Of a DNA stretch of 64,000 nt, positions 2,722-52,034 are shown one piece after another. The stretch lies in contig DDWQ01000003.1 of the NCBI GenBank assembly GCA_002345745.1, positions 6,028 to 70,027 of the forward strand, written 5' to 3'. Made by a program: the position numbers and the translations under genes. A model generated the notes under the pieces. The model was given only the letters and a program-made list of their open reading frames with translations. It had not been told where the DNA came from and searched no databases. The first letter of the stretch is position 1; the number at the start of each line of letters is the position of its first letter. The DNA comes from Candidatus Moranbacteria bacterium UBA2282 (GTDB lineage: Bacteria > Patescibacteriota > Minisyncoccia > Moranbacterales > UBA2206).

Positions 2722-3852
2722 ATGAGCCTCGAACCGCAAGAACAATTTAAGAATTTTGTAGAAAAATCTAAGGATGTTTTGATTTTGATTCCGGAAAATC
2801 CCAGTGGTGATGCAGTTGGCAGTGCTTGGGCACTCTATTTCTTTTTGAAGAAAAAAGAGATCAATGCCACAATCGCCTTTTCTAATCATCTTTCAGAAAA
2901 ATATGATTTTCTGCCCAAACCAGAAGGAATTCTGACAGAAATTTCCGGTGCTCGTGATTTTGTTCTATCTTTCAACACCGCCTACAACAAAATAACCAAT
3001 GTTCGCACTGAAAAACTTGATGATAAATTAAACATCTATCTAACACCAGAAAAAGGAGCTTTAAATCCACGAGACTTTTCTTTTATTCTGGCTAAATTTA
3101 AATATGATTTAATGATTGTTATCGACAGTCCTGATCTTGAAAGACTTGGAGCTATCTATGAAAAAAATCCGGATCTCTTTTTTGAAGTTCCAATTATTAA
3201 TATTGACCATCGTAGCAATAATGATAATTTTGGACAAATAAATTTAGTAGACATTACCGCTTCATCTTGCAGTGAAATTTTGAGCTCAGTGCTAGATCAT
3301 ATAAACTATAACTTGGTGGACAAAGATATTGCCGATTGTCTTTTAACTGGCATCATCAGTGCAACCGAAAGTTTTCAGAAGAAAAATACTACACCTAAAG
3401 CTCTTTTGGCAGCAGCCACTCTTATGGACAAAGGCGCTGACCAACAAACGATTATCCGCTGGCTCTACAAGACACAACCTTTGCATATTTTGAAATTATG
3501 GGGTCGTGCTATGGCTAATCTGAATTGGGACGAACATTCTAAGCTTATTTGGACAAATCTAAGTGTGGAAGATTTCGTACAAAGTCGTGCCAGTCAAGCT
3601 GATGTGTTGTTGATTCTCGAAAAATTGCAGGAAAACTATAGTGAAGGCAAGCTATTTATGGCTCTCTATAATGATACTCCGCTTTCAACCGTGGCTTTAA
3701 TAAAATCAGCTGACATTGCTCTATTGAAAAAAATTCAGCCACTTTTCAATAGCACTCTTAAACGAGATACGCTTGAAATTAAATCTGAAATTAAAAATCT
3801 CTTTGAAGCTGGCGAGCTAATTTCTAAAAAAATAAAAGAGGTCAACAATTAA
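2722..3852 (+). CDS. DHH-family phosphoesterase-like protein (NrnA-like; motifs partly degenerate)
   Basis: NIDHRSNNDNFG resembles the DHH motif region. Overall layout resembles NrnA/DHH-DHHA1 proteins, but the GGGH motif is not evident. Confidence 0.45.
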   Translation: MSLEPQEQFKNFVEKSKDVLILIPENPSGDAVGSAWALYFFLKKKEINATIAFSNHLSEKYDFLPKPEGILTEISGARDFVLSFNTAYNKITNVRTEKLDDKLNIYLTPEKGALNPRDFSFILAKFKYDLMIVIDSPDLERLGAIYEKNPDLFFEVPIINIDHRSNNDNFGQINLVDITASSCSEILSSVLDHINYNLVDKDIADCLLTGIISATESFQKKNTTPKALLAAATLMDKGADQQTIIRWLYKTQPLHILKLWGRAMANLNWDEHSKLIWTNLSVEDFVQSRASQADVLLILEKLQENYSEGKLFMALYNDTPLSTVALIKSADIALLKKIQPLFNSTLKRDTLEIKSEIKNLFEAGELISKKIKEVNN

Positions 3853-4003: not shown

Positions 4004-4603
4004 ATGAACAAGAAAAAAACCGTTATTGTCGTAATAGTTGCAATTATTATCCTTGCTATTGGATCGGGTATTTGGATATGGGAGAAAAATGAAATAAAAA
4101 AACAGGAACAAGTTAAAATTCAACAAATTAAACAGGAGGAAGATCAAATACAACAACAATTGGAACAACAGTCGATACAAATCAATACTCAGCAAGTTGT
4201 TGATTTAGGTGAGTGGAAAACATATCGAAGTGAGAAATATGGATTTGAGGTTAAGTATCCTGATGACTGGGAGTTAAAAATATTAAATACCGAATTTAAT
4301 AAAAGTGGCGATGATATGTTCTTTTTTGCGAAGGATGATAGAAACAGCTTCGCTGTTTTTCCTAAAGGTGGATTCGGTCATGGCATACAAGAACCAAAAA
4401 AAGTTACCCAGGATAATTTCAAGGGAAGAAATGCAAAAATGTTTTGGTATGATTATCCCTTTCCACCTTACACATATATCATTAGTGATCTTCCAAAAAA
4501 TTGGGGGGTTGAAAATGTTATTGAAATTAAAATTTCCAATAATGATCAGGGTTTAATATGTGATTTTCAGGTGATATATGATAGTTTTAATTTTATTGAT
4601 TAG
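4004..4603 (+). CDS. Membrane-anchored hypothetical protein (N-terminal TM, Q-rich coiled-coil segment)
   Basis: Hydrophobic N-terminus VIVVIVAIIILAIGSGIWIW followed by a Q/E-rich repeat. Confidence 0.45.
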   Translation: MNKKKTVIVVIVAIIILAIGSGIWIWEKNEIKKQEQVKIQQIKQEEDQIQQQLEQQSIQINTQQVVDLGEWKTYRSEKYGFEVKYPDDWELKILNTEFNKSGDDMFFFAKDDRNSFAVFPKGGFGHGIQEPKKVTQDNFKGRNAKMFWYDYPFPPYTYIISDLPKNWGVENVIEIKISNNDQGLICDFQVIYDSFNFID

Positions 4604-4718
4604 ATAGGACTGATAATCTGTAGTTTTTTAACAATTTTATAAAAAGGAGGGACACGAAAGGTATAGGTAATGTGGATGAAGTAAATGATAATAAACTTAT
4701 ACAGAGGGAGGATTTGGA

Positions 4719-5828
4719 ATGCTAAAAATAGTATTTGAGGCGCTTTTAGCGGTAGTTGTTATGCTTTCGTTAAGCTCGATGGCTTTCAGCTATACGGATG
4801 AAGAGCAGTATGTTTATGATAATCTCTATTTGCAATTGCCCTGGGAGCCAGCAAGGTATATCAAGCTAACGCAGGAGAATAGAGATACGCCAACCCATTC
4901 CGTTGGTGGTGTTGATGAATACGCATTGGATTTTGGTTTTATAGAAAGCACTCCCGTCACCGCAGCTGAATCAGGTGTTGTATATGTGTATAGGGTTGAC
5001 AATACCAATGCGTCTGCCTATGGTAATCATATAAAAATTGATCACGGACATTTTTATACTTTGTATGCTCATCTGTCTACAATAGAAGACGGCATCGATG
5101 GCTCTGAGGTTAAAAAGGGTGATGTAATTGGATTGTCTGGACACACTGGAGTAGGTTCTGGTTCTCATTTACACTTCGGTCTTTATTACGGATATGCCTA
5201 TAACGACGGGTACAGCTATTCTGTGCAGAGCAAGATTGTGTCTGCCAATGAAGGCACTGGTCCGTATCAAACCCTTCAAAGTTTGCAATTTAATAATGGG
5301 CAGTTCTATTTATCAGGCAATTTTAAATCTGGTCAGGAGGGGATAATAGTTTGTGAAAGTAATGGATGCTATGTGGACACAAGCTCTGGAGTTGGAGGAA
5401 ATGGAAGTCTCCCCGACTTCATCACCAAAAAAATCTGGTTCTCTAACTCATCAGGCAATCCAAAAACCGTGTTCAAACCAGGCGAAGCTATGCAAATTCA
5501 CATTGAGGTGAAAAATGTGGGAGCCGATACTCCCTCGGGCATTGATGTTGACTATTTTCGTTCAAATGGGCTTTACAAAGATTCAGATCCTAAAAATATT
5601 GGAACTGATTTTATTCACAAAGATGATCTCGAAGGAGGCGAGACGCACAATGAGTTAAAAAACACAACCGCACCAATAACTAAGGGCAGATACAATTTTG
5701 TGGCTTGTCCGGATCCTGATCATAATGTTGCCGAAGAACATGAAAACAATAACTGTTCCGACGAAGCTGTTTTCAAAGTTGATGATCTCAAATGGCTTAA
5801 TCCAATTATTAATTATATTTTAGATTGA
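4719..5828 (+). CDS. M23 family metallopeptidase (LytM domain) with a C-terminal CARDB-like beta domain; secreted
   Basis: HIKIDHG...YAHLS...GLSGHTGVGSGSHLHFGL is the M23 HxxxD/HxH signature. N-terminal signal peptide; SD agggagg upstream. Confidence 0.85.
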   Translation: MLKIVFEALLAVVVMLSLSSMAFSYTDEEQYVYDNLYLQLPWEPARYIKLTQENRDTPTHSVGGVDEYALDFGFIESTPVTAAESGVVYVYRVDNTNASAYGNHIKIDHGHFYTLYAHLSTIEDGIDGSEVKKGDVIGLSGHTGVGSGSHLHFGLYYGYAYNDGYSYSVQSKIVSANEGTGPYQTLQSLQFNNGQFYLSGNFKSGQEGIIVCESNGCYVDTSSGVGGNGSLPDFITKKIWFSNSSGNPKTVFKPGEAMQIHIEVKNVGADTPSGIDVDYFRSNGLYKDSDPKNIGTDFIHKDDLEGGETHNELKNTTAPITKGRYNFVACPDPDHNVAEEHENNNCSDEAVFKVDDLKWLNPIINYILD

Positions 5829-5838
5829 AGGGGGAGAT

Positions 5839-6198
5839 ATGAAAAAAGCATTGGTGATTTTTTCTATAATGATTTTTGCTGTTTTTTGTCAGACAATTAC
5901 AGCTGAGGCTACTGAATATGTAGTGTGGGATACAGTACTCTCAATATATGGGCAAAGTGAGCAAGAAAGTTCAGCACATCTGATTAGATCTTCTAAGGGA
6001 ATATATAATAATGGCATGCACCCATGGTGCGGTGATCGTGCCTATATTTTACTAACTGATAAGGCACTATATGCTACAGCCTTAGCATCTTCAATGGCTG
6101 AAAAGCATGTGAATTTCATCTATGAAGATGCGGCACCGTCAAAAACAGCTAGAGATCACATTACATTTGGCTGTAAGGTTATAAGTATTTTCTGGTAA
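5839..6198 (+). CDS. Small secreted hypothetical protein
   Basis: Signal peptide MKKALVIFSIMIFAVFCQTITAEA. Confidence 0.45.
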   Translation: MKKALVIFSIMIFAVFCQTITAEATEYVVWDTVLSIYGQSEQESSAHLIRSSKGIYNNGMHPWCGDRAYILLTDKALYATALASSMAEKHVNFIYEDAAPSKTARDHITFGCKVISIFW

Positions 6199-6372: not shown

Positions 6373-9300
6373 ATGATAAAAATACTTTCAAAAAAATCAT
6401 CCACCCATCAAGATAATGAAACAAAAAAAGATCTGGCTACAGAAAAAGTTCTGTCCAAATTGCGTCACCAATCTGAAGAGGAACAAACATCTGCTTTTGC
6501 GGCTATGATTGGAATAAATTATATTGACACTAATCTCATTCCGATTGATTCAGACAGCATTAAGTTAATACCCGAAGAAGATTCCAGAAAATTCAATCTA
6601 GCTGCAATTGCCAAAACTGGAAAAAAAGTTACTCTCATTGCTACTAATCCAACTACTCCCGAGACAATCGCCTATTTAGGAAATCTTCGCGAAACAAATG
6701 GTTGGGAATTAAATCTTTTTATCGTTTCCGAATACAATCTAGGAAGAGTTTGGGAGCGTTACAAAAAAATTGTATTTACCGACATTCTATCTCAACTTAG
6801 TGTAAACCTGACAGGAGAAGATTTAAAAAAATTTGATGAATACCTAAAAGACCTGACCACACTCAAACAAAGAATTAATGAATTGCCAACTACCCAAGTT
6901 CTTAATGTAATTATGGGAGGAGCTTACAAGTTAGGTGCTAGTGACATTCATATTGAACCACAAGAAAAAGATTTTCGTCTACGCTACCGCATTGATGGCA
7001 TCCTGCATGATGTAGCTTTTCTGCCTCTCAATATCTTCAAGTCCATTACTAATCGTGTAAAAATGATGTCTGATATGAAATTAAACTTACGCGATATTGC
7101 TCAAGATGGAACTTTTGAAGTAAATATTAGTGAAAAGAAAATTTCAATTCGTGCTTCTATTATTCCTGGCAACTATGGCGAGAGCATTGTAATGCGTCTG
7201 CTTGATCCAGAGTCTATTCAAGTCTCAGTTGAAAATTTAGGCTTGCGTGGACTTGCCTATGAAATAGTTCAAAAACAAATTACAGCTCCCAGTGGAATGG
7301 TGCTGACAACTGGACCAACTGGTTCTGGAAAAACAACTACGCTCTATGCTATTGTGCATAAGCTCAATAATCCTGAAACAAAAATAATCACTATTGAAGA
7401 CCCAATTGAATATGAATTGGTCGGCATTTCTCAAACGCAAGTTGAAAATTCTCGTGGTTACACTTTTGCTTCTGGCTTGCGTTCTATTGTCCGTCAAGAT
7501 CCAGATGTAATTCTAGTTGGTGAAATTCGTGATGAAGAAACAGTTGATATCGCTATTAATTCAGCCCTGACAGGACATCTTGTTCTTTCCACTATTCACA
7601 CCAACAGTGCTATTGCGACAGTTTCCAGAATGATTGAAATGGGAGTCAAACCAACTTTAATCGCTCCTGCGTCCAACGCATTTATCGGTCAACGACTTGT
7701 GCGTAAATTATGTGAATGCAAAGAAGAATATATACCCGCCAGAGAATCGTTGGAATCTTTAAAGAAAATTTTATCTATTATTTCTCCTAAAGCTAAATTA
7801 GATATACCCAAAGAGATTACAAAACTCTATCGACCCAAGGGTTGTCCAAAATGCAATAACCTTGGATATAAGGGTCGCATTGGAATTTTTGAGGTTTTTA
7901 TTATTAATGAAGAAATTGAAAAACTTATTGTTAACTTTGGTTCTGAAACAGAAATCACAATGGCGGCTTTGGAAAGTGGACTGATTACAATGTTGCAAGA
8001 TGGTATTTTGAAAGCACTAGAAGGCATTACATCTATTGAAGAGGTGCGACGCACAACAGGTGAAGGAGATTTTCTGCAAGATATTTATGAAAAATTAATG
8101 TCTTCCACACTTGGACGCGGAATACTAATTGATCCAGAAAATTATACTAAAGCGCTTACGAATATTAAAAATTTCCAACAATTGCAAGAAATAGTTTCCA
8201 GTGCAACAACCAAAGATATTAATAAGATTGTTTTTGCGGCGGCTTCAATCTTGCATACTGGTGACATTCATATTGAACCAGGACCAGCTGATGTAAAAAT
8301 TAGATTCCGTATCGACGGCATTCTGCAAACCATCCTTACTTTTCCTCTCAGTGAATATCCGAATATTTTAGGAGAAATAAAGATTCTCTCGGGAGTTAAG
8401 ACTGAAGTTCGCGAAGGAGTTATTGATAGTCGTTTCACTATTAAATTTGATGAGGAAATTCCTGACATCCAAGAAAAATCAGTAGATGTGCGTGTTTCAA
8501 TTATATTAGGCGGTTATGGCGAAACTGTTGTAATGCGACTTCTGAGTAAAGCCTCCCAAGAATTAGATATTAACAAACTTGGAATTAATGAACAAAATAA
8601 GAAAAAAATTCTAACTGAAATTTCCAAACCCAACGGAGTTTTTCTCAACACCGGTCCAACTGGTTCTGGCAAGACCACAACACTCTATTCTATTATTAAT
8701 ATTCTTAATAAACCTGAAGTAAAAATCATTACAGTTGAAGATCCGATTGAATATCAAATTGAAGGTATATTGCAAACGCCTACCAATGATAAGGAGGGAT
8801 ATACTTTTTCCACAGCTTTGCGAGCACTTTTGCGTCAAAATCCTGATATTATGATGATTGGTGAAATTCGTGATGATGAAACTGCACAAATTGCCGTGCA
8901 AGCTGCTTTGACTGGACATGTAGTGCTTTCCACTATTCATACTAATGACGCTGTTGGAGCCGTACAGCGTATGCTTAATATGGGTGTTTCGCCGTCAGAT
9001 ATCGCTTCCGCCGTTAATGCTTTTATGGCACAACGGCTCGTGCGAAAATTATGTGATTGCAAAGAAGAAATTTCTCCGACACTCGAAGAAAAAGAAAAAA
9101 TCGAAATAGTATTAAAAACCATTTCCTCTAAGGCTGGCGTAGAAGTTCCAGCTATTGGCAAAATTTATAAACCCAAAGGCTGTGAGAAATGCAATAATCT
9201 TGGTTATAAAGGCCGAACTACTATTAGCGAAATTTTTGTACTTGACCGCACAATCAAAGAATTAATTAATCATAGTGCCAGCACTACTGAGCTTTCTGAC

Positions 9301-9405
9301 AAAGCTGTGGAAAACGGTATGCTCACGATGGCACAAGATGGCATTCTGAAGGTTTTAAATGGCGAAACAACGATGGAAGAAGTTGCAAGAGTTACTGATA
9401 TTTAA
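6373..9405 (+). CDS. Tandem-duplicated GspE/PilB-type type IV pilus assembly ATPase (two complete ATPase modules in one 1010-aa polypeptide)
   Basis: N-terminal T2SSE_N-like domain. Module 1 has Walker A GPTGSGKTTTLYA, Asp box IITIEDPIEY, His box LVLSTIHTNSA and a C4 zinc finger (CECK...CPKC). Module 2 has GPTGSGKTTTLYS, IITVEDPIEY, VVLSTIHTNDA and CDCK...CEKC. Confidence 0.9.
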   Translation: MIKILSKKSSTHQDNETKKDLATEKVLSKLRHQSEEEQTSAFAAMIGINYIDTNLIPIDSDSIKLIPEEDSRKFNLAAIAKTGKKVTLIATNPTTPETIAYLGNLRETNGWELNLFIVSEYNLGRVWERYKKIVFTDILSQLSVNLTGEDLKKFDEYLKDLTTLKQRINELPTTQVLNVIMGGAYKLGASDIHIEPQEKDFRLRYRIDGILHDVAFLPLNIFKSITNRVKMMSDMKLNLRDIAQDGTFEVNISEKKISIRASIIPGNYGESIVMRLLDPESIQVSVENLGLRGLAYEIVQKQITAPSGMVLTTGPTGSGKTTTLYAIVHKLNNPETKIITIEDPIEYELVGISQTQVENSRGYTFASGLRSIVRQDPDVILVGEIRDEETVDIAINSALTGHLVLSTIHTNSAIATVSRMIEMGVKPTLIAPASNAFIGQRLVRKLCECKEEYIPARESLESLKKILSIISPKAKLDIPKEITKLYRPKGCPKCNNLGYKGRIGIFEVFIINEEIEKLIVNFGSETEITMAALESGLITMLQDGILKALEGITSIEEVRRTTGEGDFLQDIYEKLMSSTLGRGILIDPENYTKALTNIKNFQQLQEIVSSATTKDINKIVFAAASILHTGDIHIEPGPADVKIRFRIDGILQTILTFPLSEYPNILGEIKILSGVKTEVREGVIDSRFTIKFDEEIPDIQEKSVDVRVSIILGGYGETVVMRLLSKASQELDINKLGINEQNKKKILTEISKPNGVFLNTGPTGSGKTTTLYSIINILNKPEVKIITVEDPIEYQIEGILQTPTNDKEGYTFSTALRALLRQNPDIMMIGEIRDDETAQIAVQAALTGHVVLSTIHTNDAVGAVQRMLNMGVSPSDIASAVNAFMAQRLVRKLCDCKEEISPTLEEKEKIEIVLKTISSKAGVEVPAIGKIYKPKGCEKCNNLGYKGRTTISEIFVLDRTIKELINHSASTTELSDKAVENGMLTMAQDGILKVLNGETTMEEVARVTDI

Positions 9406-9470
9406 ATCAGAACCACATGATTAGCACCTGAACACGCATGATTTCACTGAAAAAAATCCACATAAAAAAA

Positions 9471-9495
9471 CAGACTTCAAAAGTCTGTTTTTTTA
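9471..9495. terminator. Bidirectional rho-independent terminator (cagactt-caa-aagtctg flanked by A-run and T-run)
   Basis: Perfect 7-bp stem at 9471-9487 with T8 downstream and A7 upstream. It would terminate pilB (+) and any minus-strand transcript arriving from the right. Confidence 0.7.
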
Positions 9496-9544
9496 TTCAT
9501 GTGTATTCAGAAAAATCAGTGAAAATCAGTGGTTCTGACAATAA

Positions 9545-9745
9545 TCTGCAGGCAAATCCCAAGAGTTAGACTCTCGGGGAAGGAACAGTATCGAGGTACG
9601 GTCCAGCTTCACCCCGCACCATTTTCAACAACATTTTGTGGTATAGATTTTAATTAAGAGCGAAGCGGCTTCGCCTTAAATTTCCTACACTACCACAGCT
9701 TGTTCCGAAAAATGGTGCGGGGCGGGACCAAACCGCCCATATCTG
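9545..9745 (-). ncRNA. Candidate structured ncRNA: GC-rich extended imperfect hairpin (6S-like or SRP-like?); strand uncertain
   Basis: GC-rich island in AT-rich intergenic DNA. Arm 9600-9646 (ggtccagcttcaccccgcaccattttcaacaacattttgtggtatag) pairs with arm 9688-9732 (ctacactaccacagcttgttccgaaaaatggtgcggggcgggacc) around an apical hairpin gcgaagc/gcttcgc. No ORF. The minus-strand reading contains AUACCACAAAAUGUUG, reminiscent of the E. coli 6S AUACCACAAGAAUGUGG segment. Only the minus orientation has a terminator (9471-9487). Confidence 0.35.
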
Positions 9746-9934
9746 GATAAAAAGTTCCCGAAATTGATGACAAAAGATAGAAGTCACCAATTGCCTACAG
9801 TTTACTGATAACCATATAAACGACATATTTCAGTCACTTTCATATGATTGGTTATCTTAGCACATCTTTCTTTTCTTGTCAAATGATGATATACTAGGTC
9901 TAAAGACCTTAAGTTTTAAATTTAAAATTGCTCA

Positions 9935-10984
9935 ATGTTAATAGATTCTTCTGAACAATTTGCCGCGATTGATTCCATAGTTGCACCAAAAGAAACTCCT
10001 GATGATCATAATCTGGATAACACTTTGCGTCCGCAAAATTTTACTGAATATATCGGACAGAGCAAAGTTAAAAAAAATTTGCATTTTCTAATTCAAGCAG
10101 CTAAAGAAAGAAAAGAGCCTATTGAACATATTTTGCTCTATGGTCCCGCCGGACTTGGCAAAACTACTTTGGCTAACATCATCGCTAAAGAAATGGGAGT
10201 TAATATTAAAACCACTTCTGGACCAGCCATTGAACGCGTCGGCGATTTTGGTTCCATTCTCACCAACCTACAAGATGGCGACATTCTTTTTATTGATGAA
10301 ATTCACCGTCTCAACAAATCAATCGAAGAAATTCTCTATCCCGCTATGGAAGATTTCAAGTTAGACATTATCATTGGCAAAGGACCATCGGCACGCACTA
10401 TTCAACTGGATTTGCCAAGATTCACCCTCATTGGTGCTACCACGAAACTTGGTTCACTTACTAATCCATTGCGTAATCGTTTTGGTGCAACCTATCGTTT
10501 GGAATTCTATGAAAAAGAAGATATTCAAAAAATAATTAGTCGCTCCAGCAAAATTCTCGGAGTGGACATTCATTCTACGGGACTGGAAAAAATTGCCAGC
10601 TGTGCTAGACAAACACCGCGTATTGCTAATCGTCTTTTGAAACGCGTACGTGATTTTTCTCAAATCAAAAATCATAAAATGGTAGATGGTGTTGTTGCCC
10701 AAGAAGCATTAGAGATGATCGACATTGATCCAATTGGGTTGGAACCTTCTGACCGACACATTCTGCGCACCATTATTGAAAAATTTAATGGCGGACCAGT
10801 TGGACTCGGCACAATTGCAGCGGCTACCAGTGAAGAAATAAAAACTATTGAGGATGTCTATGAACCATACTTACTACAAATCGGTTTTATGACCAGAACA
10901 CCACGCGGACGAATGATCACAGAACACGCCTACAAACATCTCGGGATTCCCTATTCCCATAAAACACCAGATGCTTTATTATAG
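9935..10984 (+). CDS. ruvB: Holliday junction branch-migration helicase RuvB
   Basis: [22 protein letters not shown] Walker A, AAA+ RuvB-like sequence throughout, ~349 aa. Confidence 0.9.
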
Positions 10985-11851: not shown

Positions 11852-13865
11852 TCGTGAGTTACAAACAAAAAATAAAGTTCGGGTGAAAAATAAAAATAAA
11901 TGTGGTTTGCTTTTATTTTTTCCCTGCCTCATTGCAGGGTTTTTTGTTTTTGCAAAAAATACAATTGCAGTAACAAATCATCTGCTCATAACTGAGGTGC
12001 AAATTGCCGATAAACTTTCTACAAATCATGATTTTATAGAAATATATAATCCTACAGATTCTATTATTAATCTTAAAGGCTATCGCTTAGTAAAAAGATC
12101 TGATAAAATTACTTCTCCAGAAACTAGCATAAAATCATGGGATTCGGATGCATTTATAAACCCAGAATCATACATACTCTGGGCTTTTAACTCCAGTGCT
12201 GATAATTTTGCAAATATGTTAAAAGCTGATTTTTGGACGGGTTCCATAATTTCTCCCAAAAATGGGATTGCTATTCGATTAGGCAAAGAAAATGAAGGCA
12301 CAATTATTGATAGTGTTGGTTGGGGTGCTGATTGTAAAAATATTTTTTGTGATAACCCATTTATAGATGTCATTGATGACACCCATACTATCAATAGAAA
12401 AATGGCAGATGGAGAATTTATTGATACAAATAATGATTCAGCTGATTTTGTATTGGGAATACCATCTCCTAAGAAAGAAACTGTTGAAATAGCTATGCCA
12501 GAACCAAAAATTTATTCTAACAATATAACACTCAATGAAATCCTACCTTACCCATCTAATGGTGACAATGAATTTATTGAGCTGTATAATCCAAGCACAG
12601 AAAACTCCGATCTATCAGCTTGGATTTTGCGAGATGGATCTAAGACTGGAAAATATATTTTTCCTGCAGACACCACAATCCTAGCTCAAGATTATTTAGT
12701 TGTTTATAAAAAAGATTTTAAATTTGCACTCAATAATTCCGGTCTTGAATCAGTCATGCTCTACAATCCGGAGGAAAAAATAATTTCTACTCTCACCTAC
12801 ACTAGCGCCAAAAAAGATATTTCTTATAATTTTGACGGCTCATCTTGGCGCTGGAGCAAGTTTCTAACACCTGGCGCCATAAATATTTTCAATAATCTAC
12901 CCACCAGCAAAACTGAGGTGCCCAAAAAAATCTACAAAAATACTTACGCGGATTTTTCGGCTGCAGGTGCTGACGAAGACAATGATAATCTGAAATATAC
13001 CTGGGATTTTGGTGATGGCCACAAAAGTTATCTGCCAGAAACGCACCATAAATATGAAAAAACTGGCAATTATGCCGTTACGCTGAAAATTTTTGACGGT
13101 AGTGAAGAAGATCTTAAAACTTTCGAAGTTGCAGTAGAAAATTTTCCTGCGCTAGATGTGAATATTATTGGTCTATCACCTAATCCAGCGGGCGCCGACA
13201 CTGATGTGGAATATATTCTCCTAAAAAATGCCACCAAGAAAAAAATCAATCTGAACGGCTGGAGCATTGCTACTGCCAGCAAAAAAGATTTCACAAACCA
13301 CCCAATTAATCTAGATCTAATCCTGAAACCGAAACAAGAATTCAAACTCACGCATCTTTATTCCAAATTCAGCCTCAACAACACTAGTGCCAAAATCGAA
13401 CTGCGCTACCCCAATGGCAAAGTCGCCTCCAAGACTTCTTACAAATCTCCCGTCAAATCAATTCCGGATGATGCGACTTATGAAAAAATTAAAGGTGGTT
13501 GGACTTGGAAATTTCCAATCATCAAATCTAAAAATCCCACAGCAGTAGCTTCCATAGAGCCTTCTATAGAGGCCTCTATCCAACAACCACCAGAAAAAAC
13601 CGCCGAGCAATTAGAACAAGAATTGGAAGCAGCAAAAAATCTAGGCAATTTTTCACCCACTCCAGAAATTGAAAATAAAAAACAAACCAAATTTTCTCTC
13701 TTAAATTTTGGTCTGCACATTACTACTGTGAAGGCTTTTTCCGAAACAGTCTCCATCTCTAATCATACGAAAACACAAGACTCCCCCATTTGCAAACATT
13801 GGCTTACACAATTGTGTGATAATTTGTTTTTCAAATTTAATTTTTGGTTGAATGGTGTTTTATAG
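11826..13865 (+). CDS. Secreted protein with three lamin-tail-domain (LTD) repeats and a PKD domain
   Basis: HDFIEIYNPTDSIINLKGYRL, NEFIELYNPSTENSDLSAWILRD and VEYILLKNATKKKINLNGWSIA are LTD signatures. YTWDFGDGHKS is the PKD WDFGDG motif. N-terminal hydrophobic anchor. Confidence 0.7.
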   Translation: MFCKIDHFNRELQTKNKVRVKNKNKCGLLLFFPCLIAGFFVFAKNTIAVTNHLLITEVQIADKLSTNHDFIEIYNPTDSIINLKGYRLVKRSDKITSPETSIKSWDSDAFINPESYILWAFNSSADNFANMLKADFWTGSIISPKNGIAIRLGKENEGTIIDSVGWGADCKNIFCDNPFIDVIDDTHTINRKMADGEFIDTNNDSADFVLGIPSPKKETVEIAMPEPKIYSNNITLNEILPYPSNGDNEFIELYNPSTENSDLSAWILRDGSKTGKYIFPADTTILAQDYLVVYKKDFKFALNNSGLESVMLYNPEEKIISTLTYTSAKKDISYNFDGSSWRWSKFLTPGAINIFNNLPTSKTEVPKKIYKNTYADFSAAGADEDNDNLKYTWDFGDGHKSYLPETHHKYEKTGNYAVTLKIFDGSEEDLKTFEVAVENFPALDVNIIGLSPNPAGADTDVEYILLKNATKKKINLNGWSIATASKKDFTNHPINLDLILKPKQEFKLTHLYSKFSLNNTSAKIELRYPNGKVASKTSYKSPVKSIPDDATYEKIKGGWTWKFPIIKSKNPTAVASIEPSIEASIQQPPEKTAEQLEQELEAAKNLGNFSPTPEIENKKQTKFSLLNFGLHITTVKAFSETVSISNHTKTQDSPICKHWLTQLCDNLFFKFNFWLNGVL

Positions 13866-14002: not shown

Positions 14003-14590
14003 ATGTTAATCTTTATGTCTAATGTCACAAAAAGAATATTAAAACTAACTTCCTCCCCTAAAACCGTCTTTACAGTGGCTGATTTAGCTATTTTTTGGGA
14101 AACAGAAAATAAAAATGTTCTACGCGTGACTATTTCTAGAGCCAAAAGTGCTGGCTATTTACAATCTATACAAAGAGGCCTGTATGCTCTAACTAACGCC
14201 AATATTGACCTGTTTGAATTGGCTGGCAAGCTCAAAAAACATTCCTACATAAGTTTTGAGACTGTCCTAACTCAATCCGGGGTAATCTTTCAATGGCATA
14301 ATGAAATCATTTCAGCTAGTGACAATGGGTTTGAAACAGAAAATAGTTATGGAAAGTTTACCTATCGAAAATTGCCAGAAAGCGCTCTTTTAGACAATAT
14401 TGGAATCATCAATACTGAAAATTATTTTATTGCTTCAGCTGAAAGAGCACTGTGTGATAAGATATACAAAGATGGTTTAGTTTATTTTGACGATTTGAGC
14501 GGAGTAGATGGAAAGCTCGCAATGAAAATTTCCAAAATATATCATAACAAACGTCTAGAGAAAGACATTAAAAAATTATTTTCATTATGA
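14003..14590 (+). CDS. abiEi: AbiEi-family antitoxin / transcriptional regulator (type IV TA, abortive infection AbiE)
   Basis: ~195-aa protein immediately upstream of, and overlapping by 4 nt (ATGA) with, an AbiEii-family nucleotidyltransferase gene. The operon layout is classical AbiE. The N-terminal wHTH assignment is inferred. Confidence 0.55.
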   Translation: MLIFMSNVTKRILKLTSSPKTVFTVADLAIFWETENKNVLRVTISRAKSAGYLQSIQRGLYALTNANIDLFELAGKLKKHSYISFETVLTQSGVIFQWHNEIISASDNGFETENSYGKFTYRKLPESALLDNIGIINTENYFIASAERALCDKIYKDGLVYFDDLSGVDGKLAMKISKIYHNKRLEKDIKKLFSL

Positions 14591-15309
14591 TTATCAACAA
14601 ACAACAACATAAAAAAATGATGCTAGATATTTTATCAGACATATCTTCTGATCCAATTTTAGCTATCAATCTTGGCTTCAAAGGCGGAACTTGTGTCTAT
14701 TTTTTATACAGCTTAGACCGTTTTTCTGTTGACTTGGATTTTGACTTATTAGATATTGAAAAGAAGGAAGAAGCTCTCAACAGACTAGATCTCCTCTTGG
14801 TAAAATATGGGAAGGTGAGCACAGATGGAACTATGCGTCGAAAAGTTAAATATTCAGAGGAATCTGCCACTCTCAAGGTTGACGTTTCTGATCGGATTGA
14901 GATAAATGCTCTGAATACATACGAAGTAAAAGATATTGTATCTGGAGTGCCACTCAAAATACTATCCAAAAAAGATATTTTCGCTCACAAGTTAGTCGCT
15001 ATATCTAATCGCTATAACAATAAAACAACCAACAAAGTCATTACCAATCGGGATCTATATGATGTTAATTTCTTTTTTGACAATAAGTGGGCTTTCAATG
15101 AAAAAATTATTGAGTTGCGCGTAGGAAAGAAAGCTGTCGAATATTTAGCTGACTTGAAAAAACTTATTGAAGATAAAGTTGATGCCAAGAAAATTCTAGA
15201 TGGCATTGGAGCATTGGTTGACGACAAAAAAAGACTTTGGGTTCGCAGAAATCTGAAACAAGAGGTGCTAAAAAAACTATCCCTGCAAATAGAATCAATG
15301 CGAGAATAG
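14587..15309 (+). CDS. abiEii: AbiEii/AbiGii-family nucleotidyltransferase toxin (DUF1814)
   Basis: LGFKGGTCVYFLYSLDRFSVDLDFDL matches the AbiEii GG[TS]..-R.S.D[IL]DF nucleotidyltransferase motifs. Confidence 0.75.
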   Translation: MIINKQQHKKMMLDILSDISSDPILAINLGFKGGTCVYFLYSLDRFSVDLDFDLLDIEKKEEALNRLDLLLVKYGKVSTDGTMRRKVKYSEESATLKVDVSDRIEINALNTYEVKDIVSGVPLKILSKKDIFAHKLVAISNRYNNKTTNKVITNRDLYDVNFFFDNKWAFNEKIIELRVGKKAVEYLADLKKLIEDKVDAKKILDGIGALVDDKKRLWVRRNLKQEVLKKLSLQIESMRE

Positions 15310-28225: not shown

Positions 28226-29380
28226 CTAGCTTTTAATCGGCATCACAATATAAGTATAATCTTCCACAATTTCACCACTTTTCTCATTTATTTCCTTAAT
28301 AGCTACCGGTGAAGATTCACTATTCATCAAAATAGCCACTTTTGAAGTGGTAATAGTATTTATTCCATCTAGTAGGTATTTTGAATTAAAAACTATTTCC
28401 TGAGATGCTCCTACAATATCCACAACGACTTCAGAAGAGTTTTCACCTGACTCTACACTCCTTGCCTCAATGAGGGTTTTTTTATTGTCTGCGTCGATTT
28501 TAAGCACAATTTCATTAGTTTTACCATTTGCAAAAATACTTGATATTTTAATTGCACCTTGAATTATATTTTTTTCACCAACTATATTTGTTTTAAATTC
28601 TGTTGGCATAATGTGCTTATACTCGGGATATTTTCCGTTAATTAAGCGAGAAACTATCTGTACGCCATCTAATTCAAAAAATATTTGACCATCTTCAATT
28701 GCAATTTTCACTTCCTGATCAATATCCCCTGCTATTATTCTCGCTAATTCCACAAAAGTGTTTGCTGGAATAATTAGCGTGTCTTTTTTGTTTATAAAAG
28801 CAACATATTCACTATTAATATTTTTATCCTCTAATTTTAATTTATCTTCTACTAGGCGAAAACTATCTGTTGAAGCAAATATAATTTCGTTTTCCTTTAA
28901 AATTAAATTTATTCCTGTTAATTCTTGACGAGTTTCATTAAAAGCTACACAAGTTATAACTTTCGCAATTATATTTTTTAATTTTAAGCTTGATATAGTT
29001 AAAATAAATTCTGTGCTTTTTTTAGGTAATAATGGGAAATCATCTGCAGGTAACCCTTTTATTATAGCTTTAGCTAAACCACTTTGAATTTTAAGATTTT
29101 GATCAACTACCTCTAGACTAATATTCTCGCCTTGTGGAAGATTATTCGTAAAATTACTAATTAGTTTTGCTGGTATTGTTATTTTCCCTTCTCTTTCTAT
29201 TTTAGCTCCGATTTGAACAGAAACACCTATCTCAAGATTAGTTGCTGAAAGTTTTAAACGACCTTTTTCTGTTTCAAATAAAATATTATTTAAAATAGGT
29301 AGGGTATTTTGTTTAGAAACCATTCTTTCAGAATTAAAGATAGCTTTTTTAAAATTTTCCTGAGTACAAATTAATTTCAT
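28226..29380 (-). CDS. dnaN: DNA polymerase III beta sliding clamp
   Basis: MKLICTQENFKKAIFNSERMVSKQNTLPILNNILFE N-terminus, 384 aa, directly downstream of dnaA. Confidence 0.9.
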   Translation of the reverse strand: MKLICTQENFKKAIFNSERMVSKQNTLPILNNILFETEKGRLKLSATNLEIGVSVQIGAKIEREGKITIPAKLISNFTNNLPQGENISLEVVDQNLKIQSGLAKAIIKGLPADDFPLLPKKSTEFILTISSLKLKNIIAKVITCVAFNETRQELTGINLILKENEIIFASTDSFRLVEDKLKLEDKNINSEYVAFINKKDTLIIPANTFVELARIIAGDIDQEVKIAIEDGQIFFELDGVQIVSRLINGKYPEYKHIMPTEFKTNIVGEKNIIQGAIKISSIFANGKTNEIVLKIDADNKKTLIEARSVESGENSSEVVVDIVGASQEIVFNSKYLLDGINTITTSKVAILMNSESSPVAIKEINEKSGEIVEDYTYIVMPIKS

Positions 29381-29439
29381 AGTAGTTTATGTAAATAGAT
29401 TATTTAAATATATATTAAGTTATTGTTTATTATATAGTA

Positions 29440-29654
29440 ATTAAAATTCTGTGGATATCTTCTTTTTTTGGCTGTATGTAAATAAATTATATGTGGATAA
29501 TTATGTGTTTAATATATAATCTCAAGCTTGGTTTTAGGTGGAACAATGTATAAAATATTATTATTTGTTTTATAAAACACAGGTTATTGGAAAATAAATA
29601 CAGGGTTGTTAGGTATGTTGTTCCTGTCTCAAATAACAACTTATACACAGATTA
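29440..29654. promoter_or_regulatory. Candidate oriC segment (dnaA-dnaN intergenic) with DnaA boxes
   Basis: tgtggataa at 29492-29500 is a perfect reverse complement of TTATCCACA. tgtggatat at 29450-29458 and ttatacaca at 29641-29649 each have one mismatch. The region is very AT-rich. Confidence 0.55.
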
Positions 29655-31028
29655 TTAGATAATCGCATACAAGCGTTCCTTGAGAGTATTTATTTCAGAA
29701 ATTAATTTTTCATTATATTCTAATTCTTTAGATATTTTGTCATAAGCATGAATTGCGGTAGTATGATCGCGTCCGCCTAATTTCTCACCTATGCCGGGGT
29801 ATGAATATTGTAGTTCGCTCCGCATAAGATACATTGCAATTTGTCTTGGTTTGGCAATTTCTTTTTTTCTATTTTTTATTATTAAATCATTTGGCTCAAT
29901 ATCATAAAAGGAAGAAACAGTATCTATAATATGTTTATGGGTGATATTTTTCTTTTTTCCACTAGCAATAAGCTCGGAAAGTAGGGATTTTACGTAAGGC
30001 AAGTCTAATTCCTTATTACTAAGCTGTGCTGAAACAAAAACACGATTAAGTGCCCCTTCAAGCTCGCGGATATTATGGGTAATGTTTTGAGCAATAAAGC
30101 TTAATGCCTCGATTGAAATAGAAATATTTTCATCAGACACTTTTTTATTTAAGATAGCCATTCTTGTTTCAAGATCAGCCTTAGAAACATCAGCAATCAT
30201 ACCTCCTTCAAATCTAGATCGCAAACGTTCCTCAAGTGTGGGAATAGCTTTAGGTGCGCGATCACTGCTAAGTACAATTTGTTTGTTTAATTGATAGAGA
30301 TAATTAAATATATGAAAAAATTCTTCTTGCGTTTTTTCTTTGCCAGAGAGAAATTGTACATCATCAATAATTAAAAGATCTATTTTTTGGTAATGTTCTT
30401 TAAATTCATTTATTTTTTGCGTGCGGATTGAGTCAATAAGTTCATTAGTAAAACGCTCAGAAGTAATATATTTTACTTTCTTATAGGGATTATGTTTAAG
30501 AATTTCATTGCCAATAGATTGTAATAAATGAGTCTTTCCTAAACCAACACCACCATAAATAAAAAGCGGATTATATATTCTTCCAAGACTTTGTGAGACT
30601 GCATAACAAGCAGCACGCGCCAATTCATTACTGCCACCAACAATAAAATTTTCAAAAGTATATTTTAGATTAAGGTTATTCTCTTGGCTTATATCATGGT
30701 TTTTTTCGGAAAAAGAGATCGGTGAACTTATTTTTTTAGGAGGGCGTATCGCATCTATATTATTTTTCTTTATGTTGCTATGACTAGTTTCTATAGCACA
30801 AGAAACCTCCTTAATATCGCTTTGAATATTTTTTAATGCACGCAAAATATAGACATTATATTTATTTTCAAGCCATTCTTTAGCAAAGCCATTAGGAACG
30901 CTAATGATAACACAGCCATTAGCACTGGAAAGGATAGAAGTATTTTTAAACCATGTAATAAAATTAGCTTTCGAAATTGAAAGTTCTATTTCCCCTAAAG
31001 CGGCTTGCCAGAGCTCTTCGTTGGTCAT
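29655..31028 (-). CDS. dnaA: Chromosomal replication initiator DnaA
   Basis: AAA+ Walker A GGVGLGKTHLLQSIGNE; C-terminal DNA-binding domain; 457 aa. Confidence 0.9.
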   Translation of the reverse strand: MTNEELWQAALGEIELSISKANFITWFKNTSILSSANGCVIISVPNGFAKEWLENKYNVYILRALKNIQSDIKEVSCAIETSHSNIKKNNIDAIRPPKKISSPISFSEKNHDISQENNLNLKYTFENFIVGGSNELARAACYAVSQSLGRIYNPLFIYGGVGLGKTHLLQSIGNEILKHNPYKKVKYITSERFTNELIDSIRTQKINEFKEHYQKIDLLIIDDVQFLSGKEKTQEEFFHIFNYLYQLNKQIVLSSDRAPKAIPTLEERLRSRFEGGMIADVSKADLETRMAILNKKVSDENISISIEALSFIAQNITHNIRELEGALNRVFVSAQLSNKELDLPYVKSLLSELIASGKKKNITHKHIIDTVSSFYDIEPNDLIIKNRKKEIAKPRQIAMYLMRSELQYSYPGIGEKLGGRDHTTAIHAYDKISKELEYNEKLISEINTLKERLYAII

Positions 31029-31302
31029 AAAAAGTGAAATTTAAAAATAAGACCCCTCTGTAGATTAGATTATATCACGCCGAAAAACAGATGTCTAAGT
31101 TAAATGTGTATAAAGGTGTTAATAAACTGTGTTTAATTTAAAGAATGAGTACTAATTAAGGTATATTACGAATTTATAAATAATGCAAGTCTTTATTTAA
31201 GGGAGCATTAAAATATCTTTGATGACAAGCCTTTCATTGACTTTAGTATAAATAATTGATAAACTTTTTAATAGAGACATAATTTATAAAGCACTTAATG
31301 TT

Positions 31303-31440
31303 ATGAGTCAAACATATCAACCATCAAGCAAGAGAAGAAACAATAGAAACGGATTTCGTAAAAGAAACGAAACAGCGACGGGACAAGCAATCCTAAAAAG
31401 ACGCAGAACTAAAGGAAGAAAACGACTTACAACAGCTTAA
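31303..31440 (+). CDS. rpmH: 50S ribosomal protein L34
   Basis: Not in the ORF track (45 aa). Translation MSQTYQPSSKRRNNRNGFRKRNETATGQAILKRRRTKGRKRLTTA matches the L34 pattern (TYQPS.KRR...GFR.R......G...L..RR.KGR..L). A TTGACT-17-TAAACT promoter lies upstream. Confidence 0.8.
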   Translation: MSQTYQPSSKRRNNRNGFRKRNETATGQAILKRRRTKGRKRLTTA

Positions 31441-31459
31441 TTAATTTTAACTTTCAACA

Positions 31460-31813
31460 ATGCTTCCTTTTAAAAATAGGCTAGTAAAGCGGAAAGAACA
31501 CGAACAAGTTCAAAAACTTGGTAATTTTACTTCTTCAAAAAATATAGCTATAAAGGCTATGAAGAATAATTCACAGGAAACGCGGATTGGTGTTATTGTT
31601 GGTCTTAAATATTCCAAGAAAGCCGTTGAAAGAAATCAAGTAAAAAGAGCATTGCGTGATATTGTTCAACCAGAATTGAAAAACATCGTAAGAGGCTATG
31701 ATATTGTGATTATGGCGAGAAAAAAAGAAGAAGAGAAAACGCGAAGCATTAATTTTAAAAAAAATATTCTAGAAGCACTAGAAAAAGGCCAGTTATTGAT
31801 AAATAAAAAATAA
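31460..31813 (+). CDS. rnpA: RNase P protein component
   Basis: 117-aa basic protein immediately after rpmH with N-terminus MLPFKNRLVKRKE (RnpA-like). Confidence 0.8.
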   Translation: MLPFKNRLVKRKEHEQVQKLGNFTSSKNIAIKAMKNNSQETRIGVIVGLKYSKKAVERNQVKRALRDIVQPELKNIVRGYDIVIMARKKEEEKTRSINFKKNILEALEKGQLLINKK

Positions 31814-31826
31814 ATAAAATAAACTA

Positions 31827-32588
31827 ATGGGAACACTGTTTCATATTACTATCTACCAACCAATATATAATTTGTTAGTTTTCGTTTACAATATTGTTCC
31901 TGATTTTGGCATAGCTATCATCATAATAACGATTTTTATAAAATTTTTATTAATACCCTTAAGTCGCAAGCAGATTGAATCCCAAAAGAAAATGCAGGAA
32001 CTGCAGCCGAAAATCAAGGAATTGCAGGCTAAATATAAAAATGACAAAGAAAAACAAAGTCGTGCAATGGTGGAATTGTATAAAGAGAGTAAATCCAATC
32101 CATTTTCCGGTTGTTTGCCGATGATTATTCAATTAATTTTTTTAATTGCCATCTATCGCGTGTTATTTAATATTTCCGAGGCTGGTTTAATAATTAACCC
32201 AATAGATTTATACAGCTTTATTCCAAATCCAGGTCAAATTAACAAGATGTTTCTAGGAATGGTGGATCTTTCATCTGCTTTGAATTTTTCCAGTCTAGCT
32301 CTAAGTAGTCTGCCACACATTATATTAGTGCTCTTAGCTGCTGGATCACAGTTTATTCAAACAAAAATGTTAATGGCGAAGCAAATAAATAATACAAACA
32401 AAAAAAATGAAGATGATTTTGCTCAAATAATGTCGAAACAAATGTTATTTTTAGGTCCAATTCTGACATTGTTTATCGGAATTAAATTTCCAGCCGGACT
32501 TGCTCTATATTGGCTTATTTCAACTGTATTTATGATTGTGCAACAAAAACAGATGGAAAAAGGGGAAACATTGGAAATTACAAAATAA
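31827..32588 (+). CDS. yidC: Membrane protein insertase YidC (short form)
   Basis: IAIIIITIFIKFLLIPLSRKQ...MQELQPKIKELQAKYK...NPFSGCLPMIIQ is the conserved YidC/Oxa1 core. Confidence 0.85.
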   Translation: MGTLFHITIYQPIYNLLVFVYNIVPDFGIAIIIITIFIKFLLIPLSRKQIESQKKMQELQPKIKELQAKYKNDKEKQSRAMVELYKESKSNPFSGCLPMIIQLIFLIAIYRVLFNISEAGLIINPIDLYSFIPNPGQINKMFLGMVDLSSALNFSSLALSSLPHIILVLLAAGSQFIQTKMLMAKQINNTNKKNEDDFAQIMSKQMLFLGPILTLFIGIKFPAGLALYWLISTVFMIVQQKQMEKGETLEITK

Positions 32589-39819: not shown

Positions 39820-39840
39820 CTTTTATGGGCTGAATAATAA

Positions 39841-40536: not shown

Positions 40537-40542
40537 ATTTTT

Positions 40543-41370: not shown

Positions 41371-41408
41371 TTTGTACAGATTATTGATAATATAAGTATA
41401 GCACAGTT

Positions 41409-44168: not shown

Positions 44169-44172
44169 AGAA

Positions 44173-44832: not shown

Positions 44833-44841
44833 TTTTTTGTA

Positions 44842-45426: not shown

Positions 45427-45461
45427 AATACGTATTAGACTTATTAAGTAACAAGTCTATT

Positions 45462-47986: not shown

Positions 47987-48387
47987 TATCTTTTATTTAT
48001 CTCTAATAGTTTTGATATTTCTTCAATTTTTTGGCTAGAAAGTTCTTTTTTGGAAATTGCTGGAACAGTTTTTTTAACAGAGGATTTAACAGTGCTTATC
48101 TGGTCAGGCAATCTTTTCCACATATATATCTTTGGCTTGGTGAAAAAAGAAATAGCGGAAAGGATAAACATTATTAGTGGTTGGCTATGCGGTCGATAGA
48201 AAGCCAGGGCACCGAAAAGTATCGATAGTATGATGGCGATGACAATAAAGGCGGAGGTATCTAGAAAGCTCCAACAGAAAAGAAGAATAACACCATCCAG
48301 AGCCAACCAACCTAATTGCTTTGCAGTTAGCGGACCGACAATTTTGTCTTCAATATCAATAAATTGTGGGACGTTGAATAGGGACAT
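47986..48387 (-). CDS. VirB3/PrgI/TcpE-like small two-TM membrane protein
   Basis: 133 aa with two TM helices, directly upstream of virB4 as in Gram-positive T4SS loci; N-terminus FNVPQFIDIEDKIVGPLTAKQLGWL. Confidence 0.5.
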   Translation of the reverse strand: MSLFNVPQFIDIEDKIVGPLTAKQLGWLALDGVILLFCWSFLDTSAFIVIAIILSILFGALAFYRPHSQPLIMFILSAISFFTKPKIYMWKRLPDQISTVKSSVKKTVPAISKKELSSQKIEEISKLLEINKR

Positions 48388-49804: not shown

Positions 49805-49817
49805 TTGAGTTTATATT

Positions 49818-52010: not shown

Positions 52011-52034
52011 TTTTTTGACTATATTTTTAAAAAA

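Follow-up and report, generated by a model that had tools for sequence, protein, structure and literature searches.

The 64,000-nucleotide stretch of DNA analyzed here (the window; contig DDWQ01000003.1, positions 6,028–70,027) comes from Candidatus Moranbacteria bacterium UBA2282 and contains an open reading frame (ORF), running from ATG to stop on the plus strand, for a 1010-residue ATPase of the PilB/GspE type in which the ATPase module is present twice. The Pfam family T2SSE (PF00437) matches the protein in two stretches (E = 2.6e-227; 754 bits against a cut-off of 24.9 bits), and each module qualifies for PF00437 by its N2D + CTD core. A BLASTP comparison of the first 570 with the last 440 residues paired residues 155–562 with residues 589–1008 in an alignment of 421 columns, of which 48% are identical (E = 3e-139). 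A preliminary description of this DNA, made from the sequence alone, had read the single 1010-residue ORF as two complete GspE/PilB cores, and both the Pfam matches and the alignment of the modules bear this out.

The domains follow in the order N1D, N2D1, CTD1, a conserved linker helix, N2D2 and CTD2. In extension-type ATPases the N1D docks to PilM or GspL; here there is one N1D-like domain for the two modules, and the segment between the modules, of about 45 residues, is too short to hold a second. The N1D scores 20.2 bits with Pfam MshEN/T2SSE_N, under the cut-off of 23.1 bits, and its orthologs score above that cut-off. From residue 27 onward it aligns with the N1D of solved PilB chains (5tsg/5zfr). 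The T2SSE_N domain that the preliminary description placed before the first core only corresponds to this single N1D-like domain, which has a sub-threshold Pfam score. In the linker, residues F567, L568, Y572, E573, K574, L575, M576, and L580 are nearly invariant; AlphaFold predicts a helix at residues 565–579, and each of the two linkers of P0003, a three-module relative described below, has this helix too. When the inter-module linker was compared with residues 136–171, the linker between N1D and N2D, the score was 32 against 23.4 ± 4.6, with 28 of 500 shuffles reaching 32, so that homology of the two linkers is only weakly supported. The features are listed in Table 1.

Table 1. Features of the doubled ATPase gene and of its conserved surroundings, with positions in the window
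Feature	Position	Strand	Remarks
DHH-family, distantly NrnA-like phosphoesterase gene, conserved upstream neighbor	2722..3852	+	
Whole gene, tandem-duplicated PilB/GspE-type ATPase	6373..9405	+	stop codon 9403-9405; ORF translation, Pfam T2SSE twice, full-length orthologs
N1D, sole MshEN/T2SSE_N-like domain (residues 1-150)	6373..6822	+	sub-threshold Pfam MshEN, alignment to 5tsg/5zfr N1D
Module 1 N2D (residues 171-290); R260 and R275; T247 at the PilB-Gm R257 position	6883..7242	+	residue mapping onto 5tsg, family counts
Module 1 CTD (residues 291-565); Walker A 7312-7335, Asp box E346, Walker B E384, His box H402/H409	7243..8067	+	
Module 1 cysteines C447, C449, C491, C494	7711-7854	+	within module 1 CTD
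Inter-module linker (residues 566-610); conserved helix, then a segment resembling the module 1 N1D-N2D linker	8068..8202	+	
Module 2 N2D (residues 611-737); R687, R707, R722 all invariant; module-specific insertion at about residues 693-702	8203..8583	+	
Module 2 CTD (residues 738-1010); Walker A 8653-8676, Asp box E793, Walker B E831, His box H849/H856	8584..9402	+	
Module 2 cysteines C894, C896, C937, C940	9052-9192	+	within module 2 CTD
A7-stem-T7 hairpin, intrinsic-terminator-like on both strands	9462..9496	.	57 nt past the stop codon
ruvB, conserved downstream neighbor	9935..10984	+	

The doubled gene genuinely exists, and vertical descent has conserved it in Moraniibacteriota and related Parcubacteria. 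From at least 3 samples, 8 contigs taken from ENA, Logan, and further assemblies encode an identical 1010-residue protein with the same neighbors. The best 120 matches from 5.8 billion protein clusters are 1005–1055 residues long, with 98–100% query coverage and 66–100% identity, bar one of 1460 residues; more than 115 clusters, of 1005–1024 residues, match the protein over its full length at 66–94% identity. Those among the 120 matches that carry names are called "GspE/PulE family protein" or "PilB" and belong to Candidatus Moranbacteria or Parcubacteria. Among GTDB species genomes, 320 stretches encode relatives, of which 80 loci were kept, mostly from Moraniibacteriota and Parcubacteria; both Walker A motifs lie within one open frame in all 80. 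A filter-free scan of 1.84 billion representatives added about 13 further clusters at 50% identity, with proteins of 978–1018 residues and identities down to 38%. Several GTDB records (L014, L016, L029, L045, L049, L051, L052, L073, L084, L063, and L078) are titled "uncultured Bdellovibrionales", "Bathyarchaeia archaeon" or "Saccharibacteria" despite a Moranbacteria-type gene and synteny, and these are probably mislabeled or contaminated bins.

An artefact of assembly or annotation, in which adjacent paralogs were joined by a missed stop or a frameshift or the assembler made a repeat, has a practically negligible chance of explaining the gene. The metagenome origin is the sole general ground for suspicion, and no support for an artefact was found. 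The ORF is the same on independently assembled contigs, and the linker helix shows conservation. Between modules that share only 48% identity, collapse or expansion of a repeat by the assembler is not plausible. The chimeric assembly that the preliminary description named as a danger is ruled out by the 8 contigs, by the end-to-end relatives in the clusters, and by the open frames of the species loci, which also show the fusion to be conserved in related genomes.

Both modules contain the Walker A motif GPTGSGKT (residues 314–321 and 761–768), an Asp box (I/V)EDPIEY, a Walker B motif GEIRD, a His box LTGHxVLSTIHTN, and four cysteines. The Walker A motif, the Asp box, the Walker B glutamate, the His box, the N2D arginines, and the cysteines are retained in both modules of 117–119 of 119 relatives. 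An intact Walker A motif, Asp box, His box, and tetracysteine site had been reported for each core before, and all of these are present, but the first two cysteines are spaced as C-x-C (C447/C449 and C894/C896) and not as CxxC. This form of the pair is a trait of the clade, found in 109 and 114 of the 119 relatives for module 1 and module 2, respectively.

Residue roles were transferred from Geobacter metallireducens PilB (PilB-Gm; PMC5424180) through a HMMER alignment to 5tsg. Both modules carry the equivalents of PilB-Gm R271, R286, T327, E357, E395, D398, E400, T411, H413, H420, and R455, and the mapped residues are essentially invariant across the wider set of doubles. Of the three nucleotide-sensing N2D arginines (R257, R271, and R286), the equivalents of R271 and R286 are invariant in both modules. 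R257 is the only catalytic or nucleotide-sensing residue of PilB-Gm that is not kept in both modules family-wide: module 1 has T247 at this position (Thr in 99 and Arg in none of the 119 relatives), whereas module 2 has R687 (Arg in all 119). A second fixed difference concerns the aspartate of the RQDPD motif, which is D376 in module 1 and N823 in module 2 (118 of 119). The mapping onto 5tsg finds the catalytic set in both modules and the R257-type arginine lost in module 1. By their pattern of conservation, in which the module cores are the best-conserved parts of the protein, both modules are under purifying selection for ATP-binding, catalytic, nucleotide-sensing, and putative zinc-site residues, and both look catalytically competent. 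A degenerate second copy, which the preliminary description had considered in case catalytic residues were lost from one module, is ruled out for the Moranbacteria doubles, because no canonical catalytic residue is missing in either module.

It is very unlikely that one module is catalytically dead, or serves as a structural or regulatory pseudo-ATPase, and that the other alone turns over ATP. The fixed module-specific changes near the active site (T247 versus R687 and D376 versus N823) would fit such a division, as would the slightly faster evolution of module 2: sequence pairs are on average 78.5% identical in module 1 and 74.4% in module 2, and N1D and the linker, at about 50%, are the two least conserved segments. 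In addition, the first module is clearly dead in P0140, an unrelated double. However, the canonical catalytic residues of the Moranbacteria doubles are intact in both modules, and the arginine at the R257 position is also absent in 20 of 79 single-module relatives examined, so that a module without it need not be inactive.

Among the NCBIfam models, GspE (TIGR02533), which comes first for the whole protein, and PilB (TIGR02538) score best. With the PilB equivalog model (cut-off 675.65) the whole protein reaches 874 bits, against 478.8 bits for module 1 with the N1D and 408 bits for module 2; with the GspE equivalog model (cut-off 630.25) the single modules score 468.5 and 430.3 bits. The PilT model TIGR01420 (cut-off 319.1) gives 183.6 and 166.1 bits for the modules and 336.6 bits for the whole protein, which passes only by summing two modules. 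A ComGA model matches each module below its cut-off. The closest solved relatives are PilB (5zfr/5tsg), GspE (4pht), and PilF (5oiu), with E values of 1e-85 to 1e-112, and solved PilT chains reach only about 1e-31 to 1e-33. An AlphaFold model of the monomer has a mean pLDDT of 77, with confident domains, and a pTM of 0.43, and it superposes on the PilB and PilF cores with TM scores of 0.87–0.91.

A tetracysteine zinc site in the CTD is typical of PilB and GspE and is absent from PilT. Each module has the four cysteines, invariant in the family, as a putative zinc site of the extension type. A protein of the PilT/PilU kind would have PilT as its best match and would lack both the zinc site and the N1D; here the cysteine site and an N1D-like domain are present. 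As far as residues and profile scores can tell, both modules are of the PilB/GspE extension type and not PilT, and the protein is to be called PilB-like, not a certified PilB or GspE equivalog.

The closest single-module relatives connect the double to a lineage linked to ruvB. P0135 (565 residues) sits in a DHH / PilB / RuvB slot, P0145 (559 residues) in the order PilB / RuvB-YebC-RuvC beside dnaA and dnaN, and P0156 (563 residues) in the order Fpg-exo-TsaE / PilB / RuvB. All three of those looked up share the ruvB slot and are 44–49% identical to the double. Pilus genes of the candidate phyla radiation (CPR), the group of ultra-small bacteria to which the Moranbacteria belong, are known from co-localized pilB-pilT-pilC-pilMNO clusters (PMC6744442, PMC12206443), and the ruvB-linked orphan lineage is separate from these. 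Judged by synteny and similarity, the double is an internal duplication within this conserved CPR lineage of orphan single-module PilB proteins, which lies beside ruvB and outside the pilus clusters.

A neighbor-joining tree of modules groups module 1 of 12 divergent doubles in one clade and module 2 of these doubles in its sister clade, which indicates one old duplication; within each of these proteins the two modules are 37–52% identical. P0129 has modules that are 74% identical and sisters in the tree, and its gene sits in the same TsaE-flanked slot; its phylogenetic placement marks it as an independent, recent duplication. P0130, with modules that are 54% identical, may be another.

The relative of 1460 residues, P0003, has three modules and is encoded directly after a DHH gene in the same gene set (L091, 8001–12383; JGI 3300022698, a 77-kb contig). 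Its middle module is a hybrid as judged from 137 informative sites. Its linker and N2D side with module 2 (52 versus 3 sites), and the CTD is a mosaic in which 56 of 82 sites are module-1-like and 26 module-2-like; the best single breakpoint is the N2D/CTD boundary. This pattern is what one would expect if unequal crossover within a double had duplicated approximately the segment CTD1-linker-N2D2. P0003 was seen on one contig only, but its modules differ by 42–55%, a divergence that an assembler would not produce. On this comparison, module duplication recurred in the RuvB-linked ortholog group, the three-module form included.

Other relatives were inspected as possible variants. P0160, an apparent single with module 2 only, was dismissed as a 1.9-kb contig at 1.4x coverage with an unrelated N terminus. 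L076 and L078, which gave long tblastn spans, are not further triples but normal doubles, 53% identical to the 1010-residue protein, followed by a second PilB-like gene. This gene (L076, about 5220–5956; L078, about 13218–13747) is 31% identical to residues 10–250; it starts directly behind the double and runs off the end of the contig. Nine single-module relatives of the same lineage (P0155, P0170, P0179, P0186, P0206, P0212, P0226, P0249, and P0269) have the N1D and a core that ends at about residue 560, followed by C-terminal extensions of 150–300 residues; the extensions have no similarity to module 2, and no Pfam domain was found in the five that were scanned. Outside the CPR, P0140 (1047 residues; L093, 8001–11144, GCA_964384625.1; also L094) combines T2SSF (PilC/GspF-like) domains with a dead and a live T2SSE module and is encoded downstream of an ECF sigma/anti-sigma pair. 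Its first T2SSE module is dead by a K to T change in Walker A and an E to Q change in the Asp box. P0140 is unrelated and its genome is not of the CPR, so that doubled T2SSE chains are not confined to this group.

In the PilB hexamer, the N2D of one chain packs on the CTD of the next to form a packing unit, and flexible N2D–CTD linkers join these units like beads, with the nucleotide bound between them (PMC5424180). We favor the reading, which we consider rather probable on balance, that the protein is a covalently doubled assembly ATPase of the PilB/GspE class, that three chains form a hexamer-like ring, and that this ring serves the assembly of pili or competence filaments. Three chains would supply six modules to one ring, which would have only three N1D anchor domains. 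ATP would be bound and hydrolyzed at both types of site, as in ordinary PilB, and the sites might differ slightly in kinetics because module 2 has the R257-equivalent arginine and module 1 does not. In PilB-Gm, R257 bridges to the Asp-box glutamate in the open, exchange-competent interface, and the loss of this arginine from module 1 alone suggests a mild kinetic asymmetry. The ring would drive a PilC-type platform, assumed to be encoded elsewhere in the genome, and thereby produce type IV pili or competence-type filaments, which CPR cells would use for host attachment and DNA uptake. The role in filament assembly is assumed because of the family membership and the prevalence of pili in the CPR, where type IV pilus systems are widespread (PMC6744442, PMC12206443).

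A ring of three chains would be the simplest outcome of linking two modules. Both site types are conserved, as a single ring would lead one to expect, and the 74%-identical modules of P0129 mean that the fusion was tolerated immediately after duplication, which fits a single ring. To a weaker degree, a single ring is also favored by the numbers of modules seen, which are 2 and 3 only and both divide six, and by the segment repeated in P0003, which approximates one packing-unit bead of PilB. The preliminary description had predicted a trimer of dimers with non-equivalent active sites; the support for non-equivalent sites consists of the two fixed substitutions described above, and the trimer is an inference in both accounts.

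Several observations weigh against this reading. The whole protein clears the equivalog cut-offs for PilB and GspE because two modules add up, and each module alone falls below. The pTM of the AlphaFold model leaves the geometry between the modules undefined. All solved PilB hexamers have the CCOCCO arrangement, with a period of three (PMC6858323), into which a covalent dimer with a period of two does not fit statically; in the course of its cycle, such a chain would need to adopt non-equivalent conformations. The three-module chain, by contrast, matches the period. The bead-like repeat of that chain is itself blurred by its mosaic middle CTD, in which 26 of 82 informative sites are module-2-like, and by its occurrence on a single contig. 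Finally, no pilC, pilM, or pilin gene lies within ±10 kb of the gene in 81 related loci, and the partner machinery is assumed.

A stacked double ring is a serious rival, although we regard it as unlikely. Six chains would form a hexamer of module 1 and a coaxial hexamer of module 2, one of which would engage the platform while the other regulates it or adds power. Ring NTPases that arose by natural tandem duplication, such as the type II AAA+ proteins NSF/p97/ClpB, and KaiC, mostly stack in this way, and six N1D per complex would be retained. GspE tolerates a hexameric ring on its C terminus, as in the Hcp1 fusions 4kss/4ksr, which are among the structural matches, so that C termini can feed a second coaxial ring. 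The linker has a conserved helix and is not a featureless tether, and a three-module form could stack a third ring. The immediate tolerance of the fusion in P0129, however, is easier to understand if only the linkage of subunits changes, and the divisors of six and the bead-sized repeat of the triple also speak for the single ring of three chains; none of these points is decisive.

The surroundings of the gene were derived by clustering all ORFs in the 81 loci. The DHH gene lies directly upstream of the double in 72 of them, with a median gap of 157 nt, and ruvB lies downstream in 64, with a median gap in relatives of 838 nt. On the downstream side, the conserved genes continue with those for a bPH_2 and an LTD/PKD surface protein and with yebC and ruvC; on the upstream side they include polA, fpg, holA, and tsaE. 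In the window, ruvB is likewise followed by the genes for the bPH_2 and LTD/PKD proteins and then by yebC (18376) and ruvC (19197). The gene had been said to sit alone next to a bidirectional terminator. A terminator-like A7-stem-T7 hairpin is there, and the rest of that statement is correct as far as it goes but incomplete, since the position next to ruvB is conserved and is shared with the single-module orthologs.

Precomputed Pfam context and direct scans revealed no T2SSF/PilC, PilM, or pilin family among the genes checked across the 64-kb window, and the earlier statement that no pilC, pilM, or pilin gene is adjacent stands. Neither the window nor the 81 related loci contain gsp genes, and neither gspL nor gspF is nearby. 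A cluster on the minus strand at 38.7–54.2 kb was considered as a pilus partner and dismissed, as it is a type IV secretion/conjugation-like set. This mostly unannotated cluster (38671–54165) encodes a VirB4/TraG P-loop ATPase (45462–47300), a TraC-like protein (47300–47986), a PrgI-like protein, TrbL_3 (49818–52010), and a TSP3-repeat protein (53092–54165).

The conserved neighborhood raises the possibility, which we consider doubtful, that the orphan lineage beside RuvB, in its single and doubled forms alike, does not assemble filaments for a pilus cluster but serves a separate function in DNA uptake or processing that is ComGA-like or independent of filaments. The neighbors conserved in the 81 loci are polA, fpg, holA, tsaE, the DHH phosphoesterase, ruvB, yebC, and ruvC, together with the LTD-domain surface protein, and the neighborhood persists for the 44–49%-identical single-module orthologs in other CPR lineages. 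The sub-cut-off match of each module to ComGA points the same way. One pilus locus of the Saccharibacteria TM7x carries recA/recX (PMC12206443), and CPR cells have been proposed to scavenge DNA by pili and ComEC (PMC6744442, PMC9530719). On the other hand, the two-way terminator and the 530 nt between the ATPase gene and ruvB make co-transcription unlikely, and the gap is longer still in the relatives. Small CPR genomes generally conserve gene order without functional implication. The argument is one of guilt by association only, and a role in DNA uptake is compatible with the assembly of filaments by a ring of three doubled chains and does not exclude it.

Between the ATPase gene and ruvB there is also a candidate for a conserved structured RNA of about 130 nt (about 9540–9800, plus strand). 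Its flanks (9540–9613 and 9727–9759) are 75–93% identical in about 40 related loci, and the homologous sites in loci of the range L006–L084 lie about 90–1500 nt past the stop codon of the ATPase gene. RNAalifold on 23 loci gave 19 pairs, 10 of which have compensatory changes (e.g. GC9/CG6/UA3/GU2), and an invariant G-U pair sets the plus strand. The copy in the window folds at -79.5 kcal/mol (z = -6.4), and no Rfam family matches the candidate. In this genome only, its apical part contains a palindromic insertion of about 115 nt (9610–9724) with the arms CACCCCGCACCATTTTC and its complement; no further copy of this insertion is present in the window. Similar insertions containing CCCCGCAC occur at nearby sites in L011, L013, and L039.

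Relative to the 72 loci with a directly adjacent DHH gene, three genes are inserted between the DHH and ATPase genes of the window (4004–6198, plus strand). They encode a membrane-anchored protein of 199 residues, an M23 peptidase with a CARDB domain (4719–5828), and a secreted protein of 119 residues. An AbiEii-family toxin gene (14587–15309) with an overlapping upstream gene of 195 residues (14003–15309 for the pair, plus strand) is present in only 6 related loci and is likely a mobile toxin-antitoxin or abortive-infection pair. The chromosomal origin region (28226–32588) consists of dnaN (28226–29380) and dnaA (29655–31028) on the minus strand, followed by rpmH, rnpA, and yidC on the plus strand. 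The distance from this region to the ATPase gene is about 20 kb; in the P0145 genome, the single-module ortholog lies about 4 kb from dnaA/dnaN.

No description of the doubled-module architecture turned up in full-text searches on fused, tandem, or double PilB/GspE, on multi-domain T2SSE, or on Moranbacteria pilB, and databases list the doubled proteins under generic names. The fold, the chemistry, and the probable job are those of PilB; what is new is the covalent multiplication of the motor, its conservation and recurrence, and the orphan lineage linked to ruvB. Models of the PilB, PilT, and GspE motors rest on symmetric homohexamers with six chemically identical sites, so that the firing order, and how many sites are required, can be inferred only from crystal states (C2 CCOCCO versus C3 OCOCOC). 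With two or three neighboring ring positions fixed in one natural chain, alternate sites could be mutated independently. This would amount to an experiment of the linked-ClpX type supplied by evolution, in a chain that is evidently functional in many species. If the ring does consist of three chains, the number of N1D anchors per ring would be halved, which bears on the stoichiometry of contacts with PilM or GspL. The lineage itself is a conserved orphan PilB beside Holliday-junction genes, distinct from the ATPases of pilus clusters, and is a candidate DNA-uptake motor; CPR cells are nucleotide-auxotrophic and are thought to depend on DNA uptake. The strongest form of the idea is distinctly unlikely in our estimate: a natural linked-subunit rotary secretion motor with genetically distinct ring positions, alternate sites, of which only the module 2 type has the arginine sensor, with fixed and different roles in the ATP cycle, and three membrane anchors in place of six, together with a RuvB-linked lineage of repeated duplication that is possibly dedicated to DNA uptake in the CPR and is not the ordinary PilB of pilus clusters. 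The significance would rise if the ring proved to be three-chained with specialized alternate sites.

Among known systems, the closest is the type IVa extension ATPase PilB of Geobacter metallireducens and G. sulfurreducens (5tsg, 5tsh, 5zfr, and 6olj). It has the same N1D-N2D-CTD order and is about 44% identical over the aligned core (E of about 1e-111 for module 1 with the N1D), with TM scores of 0.87–0.89 to the model. Known PilBs have one N2D and CTD per chain and form homohexamers, whereas the double has two modules and one N1D. The double further differs in its C-x-C first cysteine pair, in the lack of an R257 equivalent in module 1, in a gene that lies outside a pilus cluster, and in modules that each score under the TIGR02538 cut-off when taken alone. 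GspE/EpsE (4pht, 1p9r, 4kss/4ksr) shares the fold and the motifs, and among solved structures it matches module 2 best (E = 1e-89). Its setting is different, since CPR cells are without an outer membrane and a type II secretion system (PMC6744442), and the covalent, ring-promoting fusions of GspE to Hcp1 are engineered and not natural.

PilF of Thermus thermophilus (5it5, 5oiu, and 6f8l) is another protein of the PilB class with a chain enlarged by internal duplication, and its core matches the model with TM scores of 0.90–0.91. PilF is required for piliation and transformation. In PilF, however, the N-terminal GSPII/MshEN domain is triplicated and the ATPase core is single, whereas here the core is duplicated and the N-terminal domain is single. 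The RuvB-adjacent single-module orphans (P0135, P0145, and P0156) occupy the same slot (TsaE/DHH / PilB / RuvB-YebC-RuvC) and have the same N1D, but they have one module in about 560 residues, and it is from such orthologs that the double derives. Several ATPase modules of one ring-forming family in a single polypeptide are also found in engineered linked ClpX and in NSF/p97/ClpB and KaiC. These belong to another branch of the superfamily, and the natural examples stack into two rings; in engineered linked ClpX, covalent dimers and trimers still form working hexamers.

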